A stretch of 64,000 bases of DNA from Escherichia coli. GTDB taxonomy: Bacteria > Pseudomonadota > Gammaproteobacteria > Enterobacterales > Enterobacteriaceae. This document shows, piece after piece, positions 8,863 through 21,126 of this stretch. The translations under genes and the position numbers were made by a program. The stretch lies in NCBI RefSeq assembly GCF_030013205.1, contig NZ_CP122648.1, one strand, 5' to 3'. Under the pieces are notes generated by a model. That model had not been told where the DNA came from and searched no databases. It was given only the letters and a program-made list of their open reading frames with translations. The stretch's first letter is position 1. Each line of letters begins with the position of its first letter.

Positions 8863-9259
8863 GTTGGAGTCATTACCCAAATTTTGTTACTTTTATTTAG
8901 CCAGATTGTTTTTGAGTTCTGTTTTCGGCTTTTATAATTACTGCAAGAAATAATTTTATATTTAGAGTGTTGTTTTTTATTAGAATAAATAACGTCTTCC
9001 GATACGTTTAAAACGTCAGAAAGATAAAAATATCATTTGAATTAAAAAAAGAACAAGTAGAGCATTAACCTTATCTTAAATAATAAATGGAGGCAAAAAG
9101 ATTATTTTCTTTTTGCGTTTCCTTTCAAATGAAAACGATCGTCGTCTAAAATCAGCAGTACCCCCGACAAACTCAGGGATTTTGTGTATAATTGCGGCCT
9201 TTTTCGGCAATCTGCCGTTTTTTGGCGCTTTTGCCCTGCTGACTTTTGAGGAAATCCAC

Positions 9260-9595
9260 ATGTCATTACCACACTGCCCAAAATGCAACTCCGAATACAC
9301 CTACGAAGATAACGGCATGTACATCTGCCCGGAATGTGCCTACGAATGGAACGACGCAGAACCTGCACAGGAAAGCGACGAGCTGATCGTTAAAGATGCT
9401 AACGGCAATCTGCTGGCTGACGGCGACAGCGTTACCATCATTAAAGATCTGAAGGTGAAAGGTAGCTCTTCGATGCTGAAAATTGGCACCAAAGTGAAAA
9501 ACATCCGCCTGGTTGAAGGCGACCATAACATCGATTGCAAAATCGACGGTTTTGGTCCGATGAAACTGAAATCTGAGTTTGTGAAAAAGAACTGA
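9260..9595 (+). CDS. yjdM: Zinc-ribbon protein YjdM (PhnA)
   Basis: 111-aa protein [30 protein letters not shown]... with GAGG 10 nt upstream of ATG 9260; track ORF 9113-9595 is a 5' extension. Confidence 0.9.
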
Positions 9596-9613
9596 TTGTA
9601 TTGTGATCGGTAA

Positions 9614-9689
9614 GCCGGATAAGGCGCTCGCGCCGCATCCGGCAACGATGCCGACTGCCTGATGCGACGCTGACCGCGTCTTATCAGGC
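9614..9689. repeat. Pair of REP elements (BIME-like) between yjdM and yjdN
   Basis: gccggataaggcgctcgcgccgcatccggc and gcctgatgcgacgctgaccgcgtcttatcaggc, canonical REP palindromes in opposite orientation. Confidence 0.65.
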
Positions 9690-9754
9690 TTCCCTCTCAT
9701 CTGTATAAATTTCGAACTACACTTAACTGGCTTCTCTTAACTGAGGTCACCATC

Positions 9755-10198
9755 ATGCCGTTAAGTCCCTACCTCTCTTTTGCCGGTAACTGTGCCGACG
9801 CAATTGCTTATTATCAACGTACGTTGGGCGCTGAACTGATCTATAAAATCAGCTTCGGCGAAATGCCAAAATCAGCGCAGGACAGCGCCGAGAACTGCCC
9901 TTCCGGAATGCAATTTCCCGATACCGCCATCGCCCACGCCAATGTGCGCATTGCCGGAAGCGATATCATGATGAGCGATGCTATACCGTCAGGAAAAGCC
10001 AGCTACTCCGGCTTTACGTTAGTGCTCGATTCGCAACAGGTCGAAGAAGGGAAACGCTGGTTTGACAATCTTGCCGCCAACGGAAAAATCGAAATGGCCT
10101 GGCAGGAAACTTTCTGGGCGCATGGCTTCGGCAAAGTCACCGATAAATTTGGCGTACCGTGGATGATTAATGTCGTCAAACAACAACCAACGCAATAA
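9755..10198 (+). CDS. yjdN: Glyoxalase/VOC-family protein YjdN (PhnB)
   Basis: 147-aa ORF MPLSPYLSFAGNCADAIAYYQRTLGAEL...; position between yjdM and phnC. Confidence 0.88.
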   Translation: MPLSPYLSFAGNCADAIAYYQRTLGAELIYKISFGEMPKSAQDSAENCPSGMQFPDTAIAHANVRIAGSDIMMSDAIPSGKASYSGFTLVLDSQQVEEGKRWFDNLAANGKIEMAWQETFWAHGFGKVTDKFGVPWMINVVKQQPTQ

Positions 10199-10254
10199 TC
10201 CGCCGGGAGGCCCGCCCTCCCGCACTGTCATCGAATTCCCGTTAACTCTTCATC

Positions 10255-10292
10255 TGTTAGTCACTTTTAATTAACCAAATCGTCACAATAAT
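10255..10292 (+). promoter_or_regulatory. Pho box region of the phnC promoter
   Basis: CTGTTAGTCACTTTTAATTAACCAAATCGTCACAATAA: tandem CTGTnA-like 7-bp direct repeats spaced ~11 bp, about 40-75 bp upstream of phnC ATG; matches the PhoB-dependent phn promoter architecture. Confidence 0.6.
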
Positions 10293-10330
10293 CCGCCACG
10301 ATGGAGCCACTTTTTTAGGGAGGCTGCATC

Positions 10331-11119
10331 ATGCAAACGATTATCCGTGTCGAGAAGCTCGCCAAAACCTTCAATCAGCATCAGGCGCTGCACGCGGTTG
10401 ATCTGAACATTCATCACGGTGAAATGGTGGCTCTGCTTGGGCCGTCGGGTTCCGGCAAATCCACCCTTTTACGTCACTTAAGCGGTTTGATTACCGGCGA
10501 TAAATCTGCCGGTAGCCATATCGAGCTGCTGGGTCGCACAGTCCAGCGCGAAGGCCGCCTGGCCCGCGATATCCGCAAAAGCCGCGCCAACACCGGCTAC
10601 ATCTTCCAACAATTCAACCTGGTGAATCGCCTGAGCGTACTGGAGAACGTGCTGATTGGCGCGCTCGGCAGCACGCCATTCTGGCGCACCTGTTTTAGCT
10701 ACTTCACCCGCGAGCAGAAACAACGCGCGTTACAGGCGCTGACCCGCGTTGGCATGGTGCATTTTGCCCATCAGCGCGTTTCCACCCTCTCCGGCGGGCA
10801 ACAGCAGCGTGTGGCGATTGCCCGCGCGCTGATGCAGCAGGCGAAGGTGATTCTGGCGGACGAACCCATCGCCTCGCTGGACCCGGAATCAGCGCGCATC
10901 GTGATGGACACCCTGCGCGACATCAACCAGAACGACGGCATTACCGTGGTCGTCACGCTGCATCAGGTGGATTACGCCCTGCGCTACTGCGAACGCATCG
11001 TCGCCCTGCGCCAGGGGCACGTCTTCTACGACGGCAGCAGCCAACAGTTTGATAACGAACGCTTTGATCATCTCTATCGCAGCATCAACCGCGTCGAAGA
11101 GAACGCGAAAGCTGCCTGA
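10331..11119 (+). CDS. phnC: Phosphonate ABC transporter ATP-binding protein PhnC
   Basis: 262 aa, Walker [10 protein letters not shown], signature LSGGQQQR, Walker B ILADEP. Confidence 0.95.
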
Positions 11120-11143
11120 CATCCCCATCATTGAGGAAAACGA

Positions 11144-12160
11144 ATGAACGCTAAGATAATTGCCTCGCTGGCCTTCACCAGCATGTTCAGCCTCAGCACC
11201 CTGTTAAGCCCGGCGCACGCCGAAGAGCAGGAAAAGGCGTTGAATTTCGGCATTATTTCAACGGAATCACAGCAAAACCTGAAACCGCAATGGACGCCGT
11301 TCTTGCAGGATATGGAGAAGAAGCTGGGCGTGAAGGTCAACGCCTTCTTTGCCCCGGACTACGCGGGCATTATCCAGGGGATGCGCTTCAATAAAGTGGA
11401 TATCGCCTGGTACGGCAATCTGTCGGCGATGGAAGCGGTGGATCGCGCCAACGGTCAGGTCTTCGCCCAGACGGTCGCGGCGGATGGATCGCCGGGTTAC
11501 TGGAGCGTGTTGATCGTCAACAAAGATAGTCCGATCAACAACCTGAACGATCTGCTGGCGAAGCGGAAAGATCTCACCTTCGGCAATGGCGATCCTAACT
11601 CCACCTCTGGCTTCCTCGTCCCCGGTTACTACGTCTTTGCCAAAAACAATATCTCCGCCAGCGACTTCAAACGCACCGTCAACGCCGGGCATGAAACCAA
11701 CGCGCTGGCCGTCGCCAACAAGCAGGTGGATGTGGCGACCAACAACACCGAAAACCTCGACAAGCTGAAAACCTCCGCGCCAGAGAAGCTGAAAGAACTG
11801 AAGGTGATCTGGAAGTCGCCGCTGATCCCAGGCGATCCGATCGTCTGGCGCAAAAATCTGTCCGAAACCACCAAAGACAAGATCTACGACTTCTTTATGA
11901 ACTACGGCAAAACGCCGGAAGAGAAAGCGGTGCTGGAGCGCCTGGGCTGGGCCCCGTTCCGCGCCTCCAGCGACCTGCAACTGGTGCCGATTCGCCAGCT
12001 CGCACTGTTTAAAGAGATGCAGGGCGTGAAAAGCAATAAAGGGCTGAATGAGCAGGACAAGCTGGCAAAAACTAGCGCCATTCAGGCGCAGCTGGATGAC
12101 CTGGACCGCCTGAACAACGCGTTAAGCGCGATGAGTTCGGTGAGTAAAGCGGTGCAGTAA
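11144..12160 (+). CDS. phnD: Phosphonate ABC transporter periplasmic binding protein PhnD
   Basis: 338 aa with signal peptide (MNAKIIASLAFTSMFSLSTLLSPAHA); follows phnC by 24 bp. Confidence 0.95.
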   Translation: MNAKIIASLAFTSMFSLSTLLSPAHAEEQEKALNFGIISTESQQNLKPQWTPFLQDMEKKLGVKVNAFFAPDYAGIIQGMRFNKVDIAWYGNLSAMEAVDRANGQVFAQTVAADGSPGYWSVLIVNKDSPINNLNDLLAKRKDLTFGNGDPNSTSGFLVPGYYVFAKNNISASDFKRTVNAGHETNALAVANKQVDVATNNTENLDKLKTSAPEKLKELKVIWKSPLIPGDPIVWRKNLSETTKDKIYDFFMNYGKTPEEKAVLERLGWAPFRASSDLQLVPIRQLALFKEMQGVKSNKGLNEQDKLAKTSAIQAQLDDLDRLNNALSAMSSVSKAVQ

Positions 12161-12175
12161 TGTGCTCGATCGGTC

Positions 12176-12196
12176 CCCTCTCCCACAGGGAGAGGG
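12176..12196 (+). other. GC-rich intercistronic hairpin between phnD and phnE
   Basis: ccctctccc-aca-gggagaggg (9-bp perfect stem, 3-nt loop) 16 nt after phnD stop, 25 nt before phnE ATG. Confidence 0.5.
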
Positions 12197-12220
12197 AGAA
12201 AACATTAAACGGAGCAATAT

Positions 12221-13000
12221 ATGCAAACCATCACCATCGCCCCACCCAAGCGCAGCTGGTTCTCGCTTCTGAGCTGGGCCATTGTTCTCGCCGTGCTGGT
12301 CGTCTCGTGGCAGGGCGCGGAAATGGCCCCGCTCACGCTGATTAAAGACGGCGGCAACATGGCAACCTTCGCCGCCGACTTCTTCCCGCCCGATTTCAGC
12401 CAGTGGCAGGATTACCTCACCGAAATGGCCGTCACGCTGCAAATCGCCGTCTGGGGCACCGCGCTGGCGGTGGTTCTCTCCATCCCCTTCGGTCTGATGA
12501 GCGCCGAAAACCTGGTGCCGTGGTGGGTTTACCAGCCCGTACGCCGCCTGATGGACGCCTGCCGCGCCATTAACGAAATGGTCTTCGCCATGCTGTTCGT
12601 GGTCGCCGTTGGCCTTGGCCCGTTCGCTGGCGTGCTGGCGCTGTTTATCCACACCACCGGCGTGCTCTCCAAACTGCTTTCCGAAGCGGTAGAAGCAATT
12701 GAACCCGGCCCGGTGGAAGGTATTCGCGCCACCGGTGCCAACAAGCTCGAAGAGATCCTCTACGGCGTGCTGCCGCAGGTGATGCCGCTGCTGATCTCCT
12801 ACTCCCTCTATCGCTTCGAATCCAACGTCCGTTCGGCCACCGTTGTTGGCATGGTCGGCGCTGGCGGGATCGGCGTCACCCTGTGGGAAGCGATTCGCGG
12901 TTTCCAGTTCCAGCAAACCTGCGCCCTGATGGTGCTGATTATCGTCACGGTCAGCCTGCTGGATTTCCTCTCTCAACGGTTGCGTAAGCACTTTATCTGA
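12221..13000 (+). CDS. phnE: Phosphonate ABC transporter permease PhnE (apparently intact)
   Basis: Uninterrupted 259-aa ORF with multiple hydrophobic segments and the permease EAA-like region; no frameshift visible. Confidence 0.9.
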
Positions 13001-13020
13001 TAAGCGAGGCATTGATATCT

Positions 13021-13746
13021 ATGCACTTGTCTACACATCCGACCAGCTACCCAACACGCTATCAGGAGATAGCCGCAAAACTTGAGCAGGAGCTTCGTCA
13101 ACACTACCGCTGCGGCGACTATCTTCCCGCCGAGCAGCAACTGGCGGCGCGCTTTGAGGTGAACCGCCACACCCTGCGCCGCGCCATCGACCAACTGGTG
13201 GAAAAAGGCTGGGTACAGCGCCGTCAGGGCGTCGGCGTGCTGGTGCTGATGCGCCCGTTCGATTACCCGCTCAACGCCCAGGCGCGTTTTAGCCAGAACC
13301 TGCTGGATCAGGGCAGCCATCCCACCAGCGAAAAACTGCTGTCTGTGCTGCGCCCGGCCTCCGGTCACGTCGCTGACGCGCTGGGGATAACCGAGGGCGA
13401 GAACGTTATCCACCTGCGCACCCTGCGCCGGGTCAACGGCGTCGCGCTCTGTTTAATCGACCACTACTTTGCGGACCTCACCCTCTGGCCGACGCTGCAA
13501 CGCTTCGACAGCGGCTCGCTGCACGATTTTCTGCGCGAGCAAACGGGGATTGCGCTGCGCCGCAGCCAGACGCGGATCAGCGCCCGCCGCGCCCAGGCCA
13601 AAGAGTGCCAGCGTCTTGAAATCCCGAATATGTCGCCGCTGCTGTGCGTGCGCACCCTTAACCACCGTGACGGTGAAAGCAGCCCGGCGGAGTACTCCGT
13701 CAGCCTGACGCGCGCCGACATGATTGAATTCACTATGGAGCACTGA
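13021..13746 (+). CDS. phnF: GntR-family transcriptional regulator PhnF
   Basis: 241 aa from ATG 13021 (MHLSTHPTSYPTRYQEIAAKLEQ...), N-terminal GntR HTH, C-terminal UTRA-like domain. Confidence 0.93.
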   Translation: MHLSTHPTSYPTRYQEIAAKLEQELRQHYRCGDYLPAEQQLAARFEVNRHTLRRAIDQLVEKGWVQRRQGVGVLVLMRPFDYPLNAQARFSQNLLDQGSHPTSEKLLSVLRPASGHVADALGITEGENVIHLRTLRRVNGVALCLIDHYFADLTLWPTLQRFDSGSLHDFLREQTGIALRRSQTRISARRAQAKECQRLEIPNMSPLLCVRTLNHRDGESSPAEYSVSLTRADMIEFTMEH

Positions 13747-14199
13747 ATGCACGCAGATACCGCGACCCGCCAGCACTGGATGTCCGTACTGGCACACAGC
13801 CAACCGGCTGAACTGGCAGCCCGCCTGAAGGCGCTGAACATCACTGCCGACTATGAAGTAATCCGCGCCGCTGAAACCGGCCTGGTGCAGATTCAGGCGC
13901 GGATGGGTGGCACCGGCGAACGCTTTTTTGCTGGCGACGCCACGCTCACCCGCGCCACCGTACGCCTGACTGACGGCACGCTCGGCTACAGCTGGGTGCT
14001 GGGGCGCGACAAACAGCACGCCGAACGCTGCGCGCTGATTGACGCGCTGATGCAGCAAACCCGCCATTTTCAAAACTTATCAGAAACCCTTATTGCCCCG
14101 CTGGACGCTGACCGTATGGCACGCATTGCCGCACGCCAGGCCGAAGTGAACGCCAGCCGGGTCGACTTCTTTACGATGGTTCGCGGAGATAACGCATGA
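13747..14199 (+). CDS. phnG: C-P lyase core complex subunit PhnG
   Basis: 150 aa ORF immediately after phnF stop; operon position. Confidence 0.93.
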
Positions 14200-14780
14200 C
14201 CCTGGAAACCGCTTTTATGCTTCCTGTGCAGGATGCCCAGCACAGTTTTCGTCGCCTGTTAAAAGCCATGAGCGAGCCGGGCGTGATTGTCGCCCTGCAT
14301 CAGCTCAAACGCGGCTGGCAGCCGCTGAATATCGCCACCACCAGCGTGCTGCTGACGCTGGCCGATAACGACACGCCGGTGTGGCTTTCTGCGCCATTAA
14401 GTAACGATATCGTCAGCCAGAGCCTGCGTTTTTATACCAACGCGCCGCTGGTCAATCAGCCGGAACTGGCGACCTTCGCGGTAACGGATGAGGCGATTTC
14501 CAGCGAACAGCTTAACGCCCTTTCCAGCGGCACCGCTGTTGCGCCAGAAGCGGGCGCGACGCTGATTTTACAGGTCGTCAGCCTGAGCGGCGGGCGCATG
14601 CTGCGCCTTACTGGCGCGGGTATTGCCGAAGAACGAATGATCGCTCCGCAGCTGCCGGAGTGCATTCTGCACGAACTTACCGAGCGCCCGCACCCGTTCC
14701 CGCTCGGCATCGACCTGATCCTGACCTGCGGCGAGCGCCTGCTGGCTATCCCGCGAACCACTCATGTGGAGGTGTGCTGA
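14196..14780 (+). CDS. phnH: C-P lyase core complex subunit PhnH
   Basis: 194 aa; ATGA overlap with phnG stop. Confidence 0.93.
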
Positions 14781-15844
14781 TGTACGTTGCCGTGAAAGGG
14801 GGCGAAAAGGCGATCGACGCCGCCCACGCCCTGCAAGAGAGCCGACGCCGGGGCAATACCGATTTGCCTGAACTGAGCGTCGCCCAGATTGAACAGCAGC
14901 TTAATCTTGCAGTAGATCGCGTGATGACCGAAGGCGGCATTGCCGACCGCGAACTGGCGGCGCTGGCGCTGAAACAGGCCAGCGGCGATAACGTCGAAGC
15001 GATTTTCCTGCTACGCGCCTACCGCACCACGCTGGCGAAGCTGGCGGTAAGCGAGCCGCTCGACACCACCGGGATGCGTCTCGAACGGCGTATTTCAGCG
15101 GTTTATAAAGATATTCCCGGCGGCCAGCTGCTTGGCCCAACCTACGACTACACCCATCGCCTGCTCGATTTCACCCTGCTGGCAAACGGCGAAGCGCCGA
15201 CGCTGACCACAGCCGACAGCGAACAACAGCCGTCGCCGCACGTTTTCAGCCTGCTGGCGCGTCAGGGGCTGGCGAAGTTTGAAGAAGATAGCGGCGCACA
15301 GCCGGACGACATCACCCGCACGCCGCCGGTTTACCCCTGCTCACGCTCCTCCCGCCTGCAACAATTAATGCGCGGCGACGAAGGCTATTTGCTGGCGCTG
15401 GCCTACTCCACCCAGCGTGGTTACGGGCGCAATCACCCGTTCGCGGGCGAGATCCGCAGTGGCTATATCGACGTGTCTATTGTGCCGGAAGAGCTGGGAT
15501 TTGCGGTGAACGTCGGCGAACTGCTGATGACCGAATGTGAAATGGTCAACGGTTTTATCGACCCGCCGGATGAGCCGCCGCACTTCACGCGCGGCTACGG
15601 GCTGGTGTTCGGCATGAGCGAGCGCAAAGCGATGGCGATGGCGCTGGTTGACCGCGCTCTACAAGCCCCGGAGTACGGCGAGCACGCGACAGGCCCGGCG
15701 CAGGATGAAGAGTTCGTGCTGGCGCATGCCGACAACGTCGAAGCCGCAGGCTTTGTCTCGCACCTTAAACTCCCGCACTACGTCGATTTCCAGGCCGAAC
15801 TGGAGCTACTCAAACGTCTGCAACAGGAGCAGAACCATGGCTAA
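14780..15844 (+). CDS. phnI: C-P lyase subunit PhnI (ribosyl transferase/nucleosidase)
   Basis: 354 aa from ATG 14780 ([13 protein letters not shown]...) overlapping phnH stop; track ORF 14660-15844 is an upstream extension in the same frame. Confidence 0.93.
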   Translation: MYVAVKGGEKAIDAAHALQESRRRGNTDLPELSVAQIEQQLNLAVDRVMTEGGIADRELAALALKQASGDNVEAIFLLRAYRTTLAKLAVSEPLDTTGMRLERRISAVYKDIPGGQLLGPTYDYTHRLLDFTLLANGEAPTLTTADSEQQPSPHVFSLLARQGLAKFEEDSGAQPDDITRTPPVYPCSRSSRLQQLMRGDEGYLLALAYSTQRGYGRNHPFAGEIRSGYIDVSIVPEELGFAVNVGELLMTECEMVNGFIDPPDEPPHFTRGYGLVFGMSERKAMAMALVDRALQAPEYGEHATGPAQDEEFVLAHADNVEAAGFVSHLKLPHYVDFQAELELLKRLQQEQNHG

Positions 15845-21099: not shown

Positions 21100-21126
21100 G
21101 GGAAAATACCCGCGCCGGCCCCTATA

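Follow-up and report, generated by a model that had tools for sequence, protein, structure and literature searches.

What occupies the space between phnD and phnE in Escherichia coli, and does it serve the operon in which it lies? The question is raised by a strong GC-rich hairpin found in a 64,000-nt stretch of E. coli DNA (the whole stretch analysed, hereafter the window). The original prediction viewed this hairpin as a regulatory structure of the phn operon that might stabilise the upstream phnCD message or modulate the coupling to phnE, a gene that is phase-variable in K-12.

The hairpin and its setting

In the window, the gene for the periplasmic phosphonate-binding protein, phnD (338 aa; 11144..12160, + strand), ends with a TAA stop codon at 12158-12160, and the permease gene phnE (259 aa; 12221..13000, + strand) begins with an ATG at 12221. 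Both are taken from the list of open reading frames, and phnD also from the RefSeq annotation of identical or near-identical E. coli loci. Reading of the intervening sequence confirmed that 12176-12196 forms a perfect stem of 9 bp closed by a 3-nt loop, composed on the + strand of a 5' arm, CCCTCTCCC (12176..12184), the loop ACA (12185..12187) and a 3' arm, GGGAGAGGG (12188..12196). Its placement between the phnD stop and the phnE start was also as described, with 15 nt between stop codon and stem and 24 nt between stem and ATG. Downstream lies an A-rich, mostly unpaired spacer (12197..12220, + strand), within which the phnE Shine-Dalgarno sequence, GGAG, is found at 12211-12214. The sequence directly 3' of the hairpin, AGAAAACAUUAAAC, contains no U-tract on either strand, in agreement with the earlier description, and a scan for terminators and promoters did not flag the hairpin site.

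Folded in isolation, the RNA is predicted to form a stem-loop of 11 pairs with one bulged A (12197) spanning 12174..12199, in which 12174-12175 pair with 12198-12199 in addition to the perfect stem (-19.0 kcal/mol; z = -3.4). The extended stem begins 13-15 nt past the phnD stop codon, and the same helix appears in folds of the surrounding sequence, with z = -3.95 for an 86-nt context. The hairpin pattern occurs once in the window even when 3 mismatches are allowed, with 0 occurrences expected from 100 shuffles. Perfect hairpins with stems of at least 9 bp, taken as a class, gave 13 overlapping matches in the 64 kb, about 11 of them distinct, as against 0-3 in mononucleotide shuffles, so the phnD-phnE hairpin is non-random and yet one of about 11 such structures in the window.

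An Rfam scan of positions 9000-15000 with E-values up to 10 found no real match at the hairpin. A SAM/SAH match at the site was rejected as chance, having 16.4 bits against a gathering score of 40, and a 61-aa open reading frame overlapping the hairpin (12160-12345) was discarded as spurious, since it crosses the phnE start in another frame and nothing supports it. Elsewhere, at 9613-9690, the Rfam model naRNA4, a REP-type nucleoid-associated RNA, scored 87.5 bits on the + strand and 50.5 bits on the - strand. This match lies between the open reading frame on the yjdM (phnA) side and yjdN, and points to a REP/BIME element just upstream of the phn operon.

No connection with phnE phase variation was found. 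The phnE gene is intact in the window, and RefSeq annotates it as frameshifted in a K-12-like genome (L001), consistent with the known phnE defect of K-12.

Derivation from an inverted BoxC pair

Holder et al. 2015 (PMC4666352), who cite both the BoxC descriptions of the 1990s and the PIT studies of Maher and colleagues, describe a repeat motif which is BoxC, rediscovered as the PIT element, and which they renamed TMECO. By their account MG1655 carries 23 copies, all intergenic, with a second loop that is TTA in type A and CCG in type B; five sets are inverted A+B pairs, and at paired TMECOs, TMECO 1/2 included, they describe a 'palindrome effect'. The phnD-phnE hairpin is, with near certainty, the Watson-Crick stem-loop remnant of such an inverted pair after its collapse. 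The original pair was, with the same near certainty, a type A unit in sense orientation and a type B unit in antisense orientation, about 107 nt together, bounded by TGTGCTCGATCGGTC and AGAAAA.

This identification rests on a long allele that occupies the same site in strain 405 (L003). Removal of 65 nt between its two direct copies of CCCTCTCCC yields the exact gap of the window. The two halves of the long allele match TMECO #2 (type A, 34/35) and TMECO #1 (type B, 34/34) of MG1655 as listed in Table 1 of PMC4666352; these two make up the hrpB-mrcB pair of MG1655, and the element ends are also common to that pair and the strain 405 pair. In the window, the BoxC-derived repeat unit is 43 nt long (12161..12203, + strand) and consists of TGTGCTCGATCGGTC as its left end, the hairpin, and AGAAAAC as its right end. 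Set against the long allele, the 5' arm of the hairpin is the counterpart of the type A C-block, and the loop ACA that of the antisense type B loop, which reads TGT on the opposite strand. Furthermore, all 43 nt of 12161-12203 recur as an identical copy in the hrpB-mrcB gap of E. coli O111:H11 8D, where the collapsed 43-mer stands in place of the long pair. The family is widely dispersed, since a query with the long allele found 64,548 places, E. coli genomes having a median of 13 of them and at most 26.

The window copy thus shares with BoxC/PIT/TMECO the C-block, a loop within the 3-4-nt range and the G-block (CCCTCTCCC-TGT/ACA-GGGAGAGGG), which are identical to those of TMECO #1/#2, as well as the element ends of the MG1655 hrpB-mrcB pair. 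It belongs to a multi-copy, dispersed, intergenic and strain-variable family, and it represents the collapse of an inverted A+B pair to a single stem-loop described as the 'palindrome effect'. It differs from the complete element in one respect, the third purine block, which in BoxC is GGGTGAGGG following the TTA loop of type A or the CCG loop of type B. The long allele that strain 405 has at this site contains both third-strand blocks, GGGTGAGGG and CCCTCACCC, and the 64-kb window contains neither at any position. Because the 65-nt deletion took both of them, only an ordinary hairpin remains, and the window copy is a truncated BoxC derivative with an incomplete triplex motif. No further BoxC motifs were found elsewhere in the window. 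Also, the phnD-phnE gap of the window contains no REP consensus palindrome of the GCCGGATG...CTTATCCGGCCTAC type, one of which is present in the K-12-type allele; it has the features neither of a REP/BIME nor of an intrinsic terminator. The hairpin should therefore be annotated as the remnant of a BoxC-derived repeat, a collapsed copy of a dispersed element, instead of the dedicated phn regulator that had been envisaged.

Much of this description has precedents: the kind of element, the exact palindrome, the A+B pairing and the collapse to single stem-loops are all published. In Enterobacter sp. 638, 100 copies of CCCTCTCCCXX(X)GGGAGAGGG have been reported, XX(X) being mostly TGT/ACA (PMC2869309). 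These repeats share with the window the palindrome and the preferred TGT/ACA loop, and often lie at gene 3' ends; the treatment differs in that it offers the count and a guess at termination, with no allelic or operon context in what that source says of them. Neither the occupancy pattern of the phnD-phnE slot nor an RNA-level function of BoxC was found in the literature searched. The supplementary text of PMC4666352 that was searched has no occurrence of phnD or phnE, its 63 TM loci being given as alignment-block coordinates only, and none of the 23 MG1655 copies lies at phnD-phnE, since that place is taken by a REP in K-12. As a minor point, the original 'box C' is placed next to fabI, and no clear BoxC was found on the yciW side of that gene in MG1655; Table S2 of Holder et al. 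(PMC4666352) puts TMECO 9 between fabI and ycjD, not on the yciW side.

Occupants of the gap within and beyond E. coli

Six states of the phnD-phnE gap were distinguished in E. coli from an allele alignment and the printed gaps. Allele A, that of strain 405, is 125 nt long and reads TGTGCTCGATCGGTC-CCCTCTCCC-TTGA-GGGAGAGGG-TTA-GGGTGAGGG...CCCTCACCC-CGG-CCCTCTCCC-ACA-GGGAGAGGG-AGAAAA. Allele B (60 nt) is the form in the window; allele C (61 nt) is like allele B but has a TTGA loop; allele D (67 nt) is a partial collapse; allele E (64 nt) is an inversion of the entire element and has one hairpin, of the CCCTCGCCCC/GGGGAGAGGG variant; and allele F (105 nt) is the K-12 form, made of REP/BIME sequence. 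A 64-nt deletion between the two GGGAGAGGG repeats of allele A gives allele C exactly, and a 58-nt deletion at an AGGG microhomology in allele A gives allele D, again exactly. Judged by these deletions, alleles B, C and D are three independent collapses with different end points, matching the 'palindrome effect'. The spacer between the Shine-Dalgarno sequence and the ATG (window 12215-12220) reads GCAATAT in the window and in strain 405, and GCCAAAC in alleles C, D and E and in the REP allele; the shared GCAATAT indicates that the window allele was probably derived from a long allele like that of strain 405. The window is 100% identical to strain K_EC180 over 401 nt, strain 118UI also being 100% identical at this locus, and in a sequence search most E. 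coli genomes matched at the coding flanks only and had a longer gap.

Using allele-specific queries with 50-nt flanks, we estimated allele numbers for the 5,392 E. coli genomes with the locus. REP alleles, K-12 included, account for 3,876 of these (72%) and BoxC-derived alleles for 1,505 (28%), and a REP or BoxC-derived palindrome lies in the gap of about 99.7% of the genomes that carry the locus. The coverage thresholds split REP from BoxC cleanly, but not long from collapsed alleles. Within the BoxC-derived group, about 180 genomes have the inverted allele E, about 970 a forward collapsed allele (B, C or D) and about 350 the long allele A, the last two being obtained by subtraction and approximate, because collapsed alleles reach 81% coverage of the long query; for the window-type allele B the counts give bounds only (148-295 genomes). 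The comparison with K-12 that the original prediction had asked for therefore shows replacement by a REP/BIME rather than conservation of the hairpin, and K-12, because it carries a REP there, is a poor reference for this junction.

The 3' end of the operon also varies. MG1655 (L092:590-760) has a BoxC 23 nt after phnP, comprising TMECO 22 and a second partial unit, and the phnP-yjdP gap of the window (21100-21126) is about 27 nt long and has no BoxC. K-12 thus has a REP at phnD/E and a BoxC after phnP, and the window strain a BoxC remnant at phnD/E and none after phnP.

A PhnD-based scan of species-representative genomes, in which 80 loci were kept, allowed 79 phnD-phnE gaps to be extracted. 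None of the 80 is from Escherichia, even though PhnD of E. coli would be expected to give the highest score, which may reflect the way in which loci were selected. A strongly folding palindrome was present in this gap in 77 of the 79 Enterobacteriaceae/Vibrio species, with z mostly <= -3.5, and the palindromes are of at least three unrelated sequence types. The gap is BoxC-type in 40/79 (single hairpins, A+B pairs in either orientation, and arrays of up to 279 nt) and REP-type in about 30/79. Another 7/79 were classed as unrelated unique hairpins, from three Atlantibacter, Enterobacillus, two Vibrio and Buttiauxella sp. B2; the stem sequences of the two Vibrio differ from each other, and the Buttiauxella hairpin (L070) is a degenerate BoxC-like one. 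No hairpin is present in L083 and L084, two species whose gap measures 22-23 nt, which implies that the element is dispensable. Among species, anywhere from 0 to 19 nt separate the stop codon and the first paired base.

The adjoining gaps of the operon are short. Median lengths are 23 nt for phnC-phnD, with 69/80 loci at <=49 nt, and 20 nt for phnE-phnF, with 69/73 at <=33 nt. Repeats are found in them sporadically, in 11/80 species for phnC-phnD and 4/73 for phnE-phnF, so insertion elsewhere in the operon is possible, and only the slot after phnD is nearly always filled. This arrangement, a single slot after the binding-protein gene that holds unrelated palindromes in different lineages next to gaps that are empty, amounts to a natural experiment.

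Several features of individual genera were seen in the same survey. Among the phnC-phnD gaps of L018-L024, L027, L037, L054, L087 and L091, those of some Citrobacter and Leclercia contain another palindromic insert, CCAGGC...GCCTGG, of 64-155 nt. Some Cedecea, Buttiauxella and Dryocola (L067, L069, L071, L078) have a REP between phnE and phnF. In L031, L054, L080 and L087, the phnD-phnE gap (202-279 nt) holds tandem BoxC-like half units set about 40-50 nt apart, which indicates that BoxC amplifies locally in some genera. Additionally, PhnD of Pseudocitrobacter faecalis (L012) and P. vendiensis (L013) is 99% identical to that of E. coli, as compared with 88-93% in Citrobacter/Enterobacter. The gap of P. 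vendiensis is allele C, and that of P. faecalis is 251 nt long with two long A+B pairs in tandem; the E. coli-like PhnD and gaps of these two suggest recent horizontal transfer of phn or a mislabelled genome.

Possible roles of the hairpin

At malE-malF, intercistronic REP stem-loops stop 3'-to-5' exonucleases and thereby stabilise the upstream message for the binding protein, and Newbury and Higgins reportedly established REPs as intercistronic stabilisers at malE-malF and hisJ-hisQ in 1987-88. By analogy, we give an even chance to the reading that the phnD-phnE hairpin is a REP-like barrier to 3' exonucleases that stabilises the phnCD segment. On this view the -19 kcal/mol hairpin lies within the long Pho-regulated phnCDEFGHIJKLMNOP transcript, and RNA polymerase is proposed to read through it because there is no U-tract. 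An endonucleolytic cut downstream, either in phnE or in the A/U-rich spacer, where by our own reading AC↓AUU at 12202-12206 (+ strand) is a candidate match to the RNase E-like pattern RN↓WUU, would create an entry point for exonucleases, and PNPase and RNase II, moving 3' to 5', would be held up at the stem base. Message for phnC-phnD would then outlive the rest of the operon mRNA, and the PhnD binding protein would be made in excess over the PhnE permease, as with the REP at malE-malF. The REP of K-12 and most E. coli and the BoxC-derived hairpins would be interchangeable occupants of one functional slot.

The precedents are close. Dar and Sorek 2018 (PMC5927463), who summarise the malE-malF REP stem-loops as stabilisers of upstream message, report that in ABC-transporter operons of E. 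coli the stabilised gene is invariably the substrate-binding subunit, and that in 26/34 operon pairs with a stabilised 5' gene the mRNA 3' ends lie just beyond a stable hairpin that lacks both a U-tract and a Rho signal. The phnD-phnE hairpin resembles this protective class in being stable, without a U-tract and at the boundary between a binding-protein gene and a permease gene. The structures of Dar and Sorek differ in lying mostly inside the downstream coding sequence and in being conserved in sequence; phn was not expressed under their conditions, and no BoxC motif was found in those of their supplementary tables that were searched (PMC5927463). With the REP/BIME stabilisers, the hairpin shares the form of a stable stem-loop with no U-tract directly 3' of the gene for an ABC-transporter binding protein, and a REP/BIME is the actual occupant of this gap in K-12 and about 72% of E. 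coli genomes. The sequence families are nevertheless unrelated, and the naRNA4 model matches at 9613-9690, not at the hairpin site. REPs are thought to be mobilised by RAYT transposases; we know of no mobilising enzyme for BoxC, and BoxC is not known to act as a stabiliser. The phn operon is silent unless phosphate is limiting.

The decay-barrier reading is favoured because the hairpin is stable and has no U-tract, because the slot is occupied in 77/79 species and about 99.7% of E. coli genomes, and because the neighbouring intercistronic gaps are short and usually empty. Stabilisation of the phnCD message, as first suggested, is thus the best-supported mechanism, on the analogy with malE-malF and the operons of PMC5927463 and on the occupancy across species, but the notion of an element made for phn has to be given up. 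A more general form of this reading is one that we advance tentatively, leaning slightly against it: that BoxC is an RNA-level decay barrier interchangeable with REP, that selection may keep some stem-loop after phnD in Enterobacteriaceae/Vibrio while the sequence family turns over, and that the third strand would be dispensable for this role. To our knowledge, BoxC has had no accepted function since the 1990s. Were the decay barrier real, it would be the first demonstrated function of BoxC, and REP and BoxC would be functionally equivalent; if it is not, the locus is a clean case of repeat turnover at a permissive site.

That last outcome, in which REP and BoxC elements insert, invert, amplify and decay in a tolerant gap and the hairpin is an unselected by-product of slippage, seems to us the less probable account, though a serious one. 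It draws on the extreme polymorphism within one species, with six alleles at this site, at least three independent collapses with different end points and the element in both orientations, on tandem amplification to 279 nt in some species, and on the hairpin-free L083 and L084. It draws as well on the BoxC after phnP in MG1655, absent there in the window, and on the general instability of BoxC loci described in PMC4666352; in the same paper's account, TMECOs have no consistent relation to gene orientation, distance or operon position, and published studies had found no regulatory activity of PIT/TMECO. Moreover, a hairpin is left for mechanical reasons whenever a palindromic pair collapses, so survival of the stem through three collapses is not in itself evidence of selection, because deletion within a palindromic pair leaves a hairpin automatically. 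Neutral turnover does not readily account for the near-universal occupancy (77/79 species; about 99.7% of E. coli genomes), given that the neighbouring gaps gain repeats only sporadically (11/80 and 4/73 species), nor for the species which have neither REP nor BoxC and still carry a unique stable hairpin, the two Vibrio with their different stems among them. The position directly 3' of a binding-protein gene also fits the stabiliser architecture known from PMC5927463.

The remaining explanations place the effect in translation, in DNA or in transcription. The structure might set phnE translation, by uncoupling it from phnD or occluding the Shine-Dalgarno sequence, or the stem might hold ribosomes at the stop codon and so lower the output of PhnD; Liang, Rudd and Deutscher reportedly found in 2015 that REPs do the latter when they lie within about 15 nt of a stop codon. 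The onset of the extended stem, 13-15 nt past the phnD stop, is at the edge of the footprint of a terminating ribosome. In local folds, UGCUC in the left flank (12163-12167) is predicted to pair with GAGCA (12212-12216), overlapping the Shine-Dalgarno sequence. The mean predicted unpaired probability of the latter is 0.24 with forward BoxC alleles and 0.38 with allele D, as low as 0.10 with the inverted allele, and 0.74 with the K-12 REP allele. This 5-bp closing helix is weak, however, and depends on the arbitrary choice of the folded window; the spacing between stop codon and stem, 0 to 19 nt across species, is not conserved; and the Shine-Dalgarno sequence and start-codon context of the window lie outside the repeat. 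A translational role is accordingly improbable in our estimation, and of the original suggestion that the hairpin modulates coupling to phnE there stands only what the weak helix predicted over the Shine-Dalgarno sequence would permit. Still harder to credit is a non-B DNA role of the kind proposed for TMECO, in which an intrastrand triplex or cruciform would pause replication or favour rearrangement. Triplexes are formed in vitro by BoxC/TMECO oligonucleotides, and E. coli strains are hypervariable at TMECO loci (PMC4666352), as they are at the phnD-phnE locus, but in vivo DMS footprinting by Holder et al. saw no triplex protection (PMC4666352). The window copy, because its third-strand blocks are lost, falls outside the triplex definition and could form only a 9-bp cruciform, and DNA instability accounts for the origin of the alleles, not for a present role. 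An intrinsic terminator or attenuator ending part of transcription after phnD would suit a GC-rich stem-loop right after a stop codon, and yet strikes us as the least credible reading: there is no U-tract on either strand, the terminator scan was empty at the site, and the twelve downstream genes are required for C-P lyase function, genes which, according to what Metcalf and Wanner are said to have found in 1993, have no promoter of their own. PIT elements, moreover, had no promoter or terminator activity and no effect on RNA polymerase in the work of Maher and colleagues, as cited in the introduction to PMC4666352.

Outside phn, an intercistronic BoxC is also listed for a second ABC-transporter operon of the Pho regulon, pstSCAB-phoU, in which TMECO 19 lies in the pstA-pstB gap of MG1655 (Holder et al., Table S2, PMC4666352).
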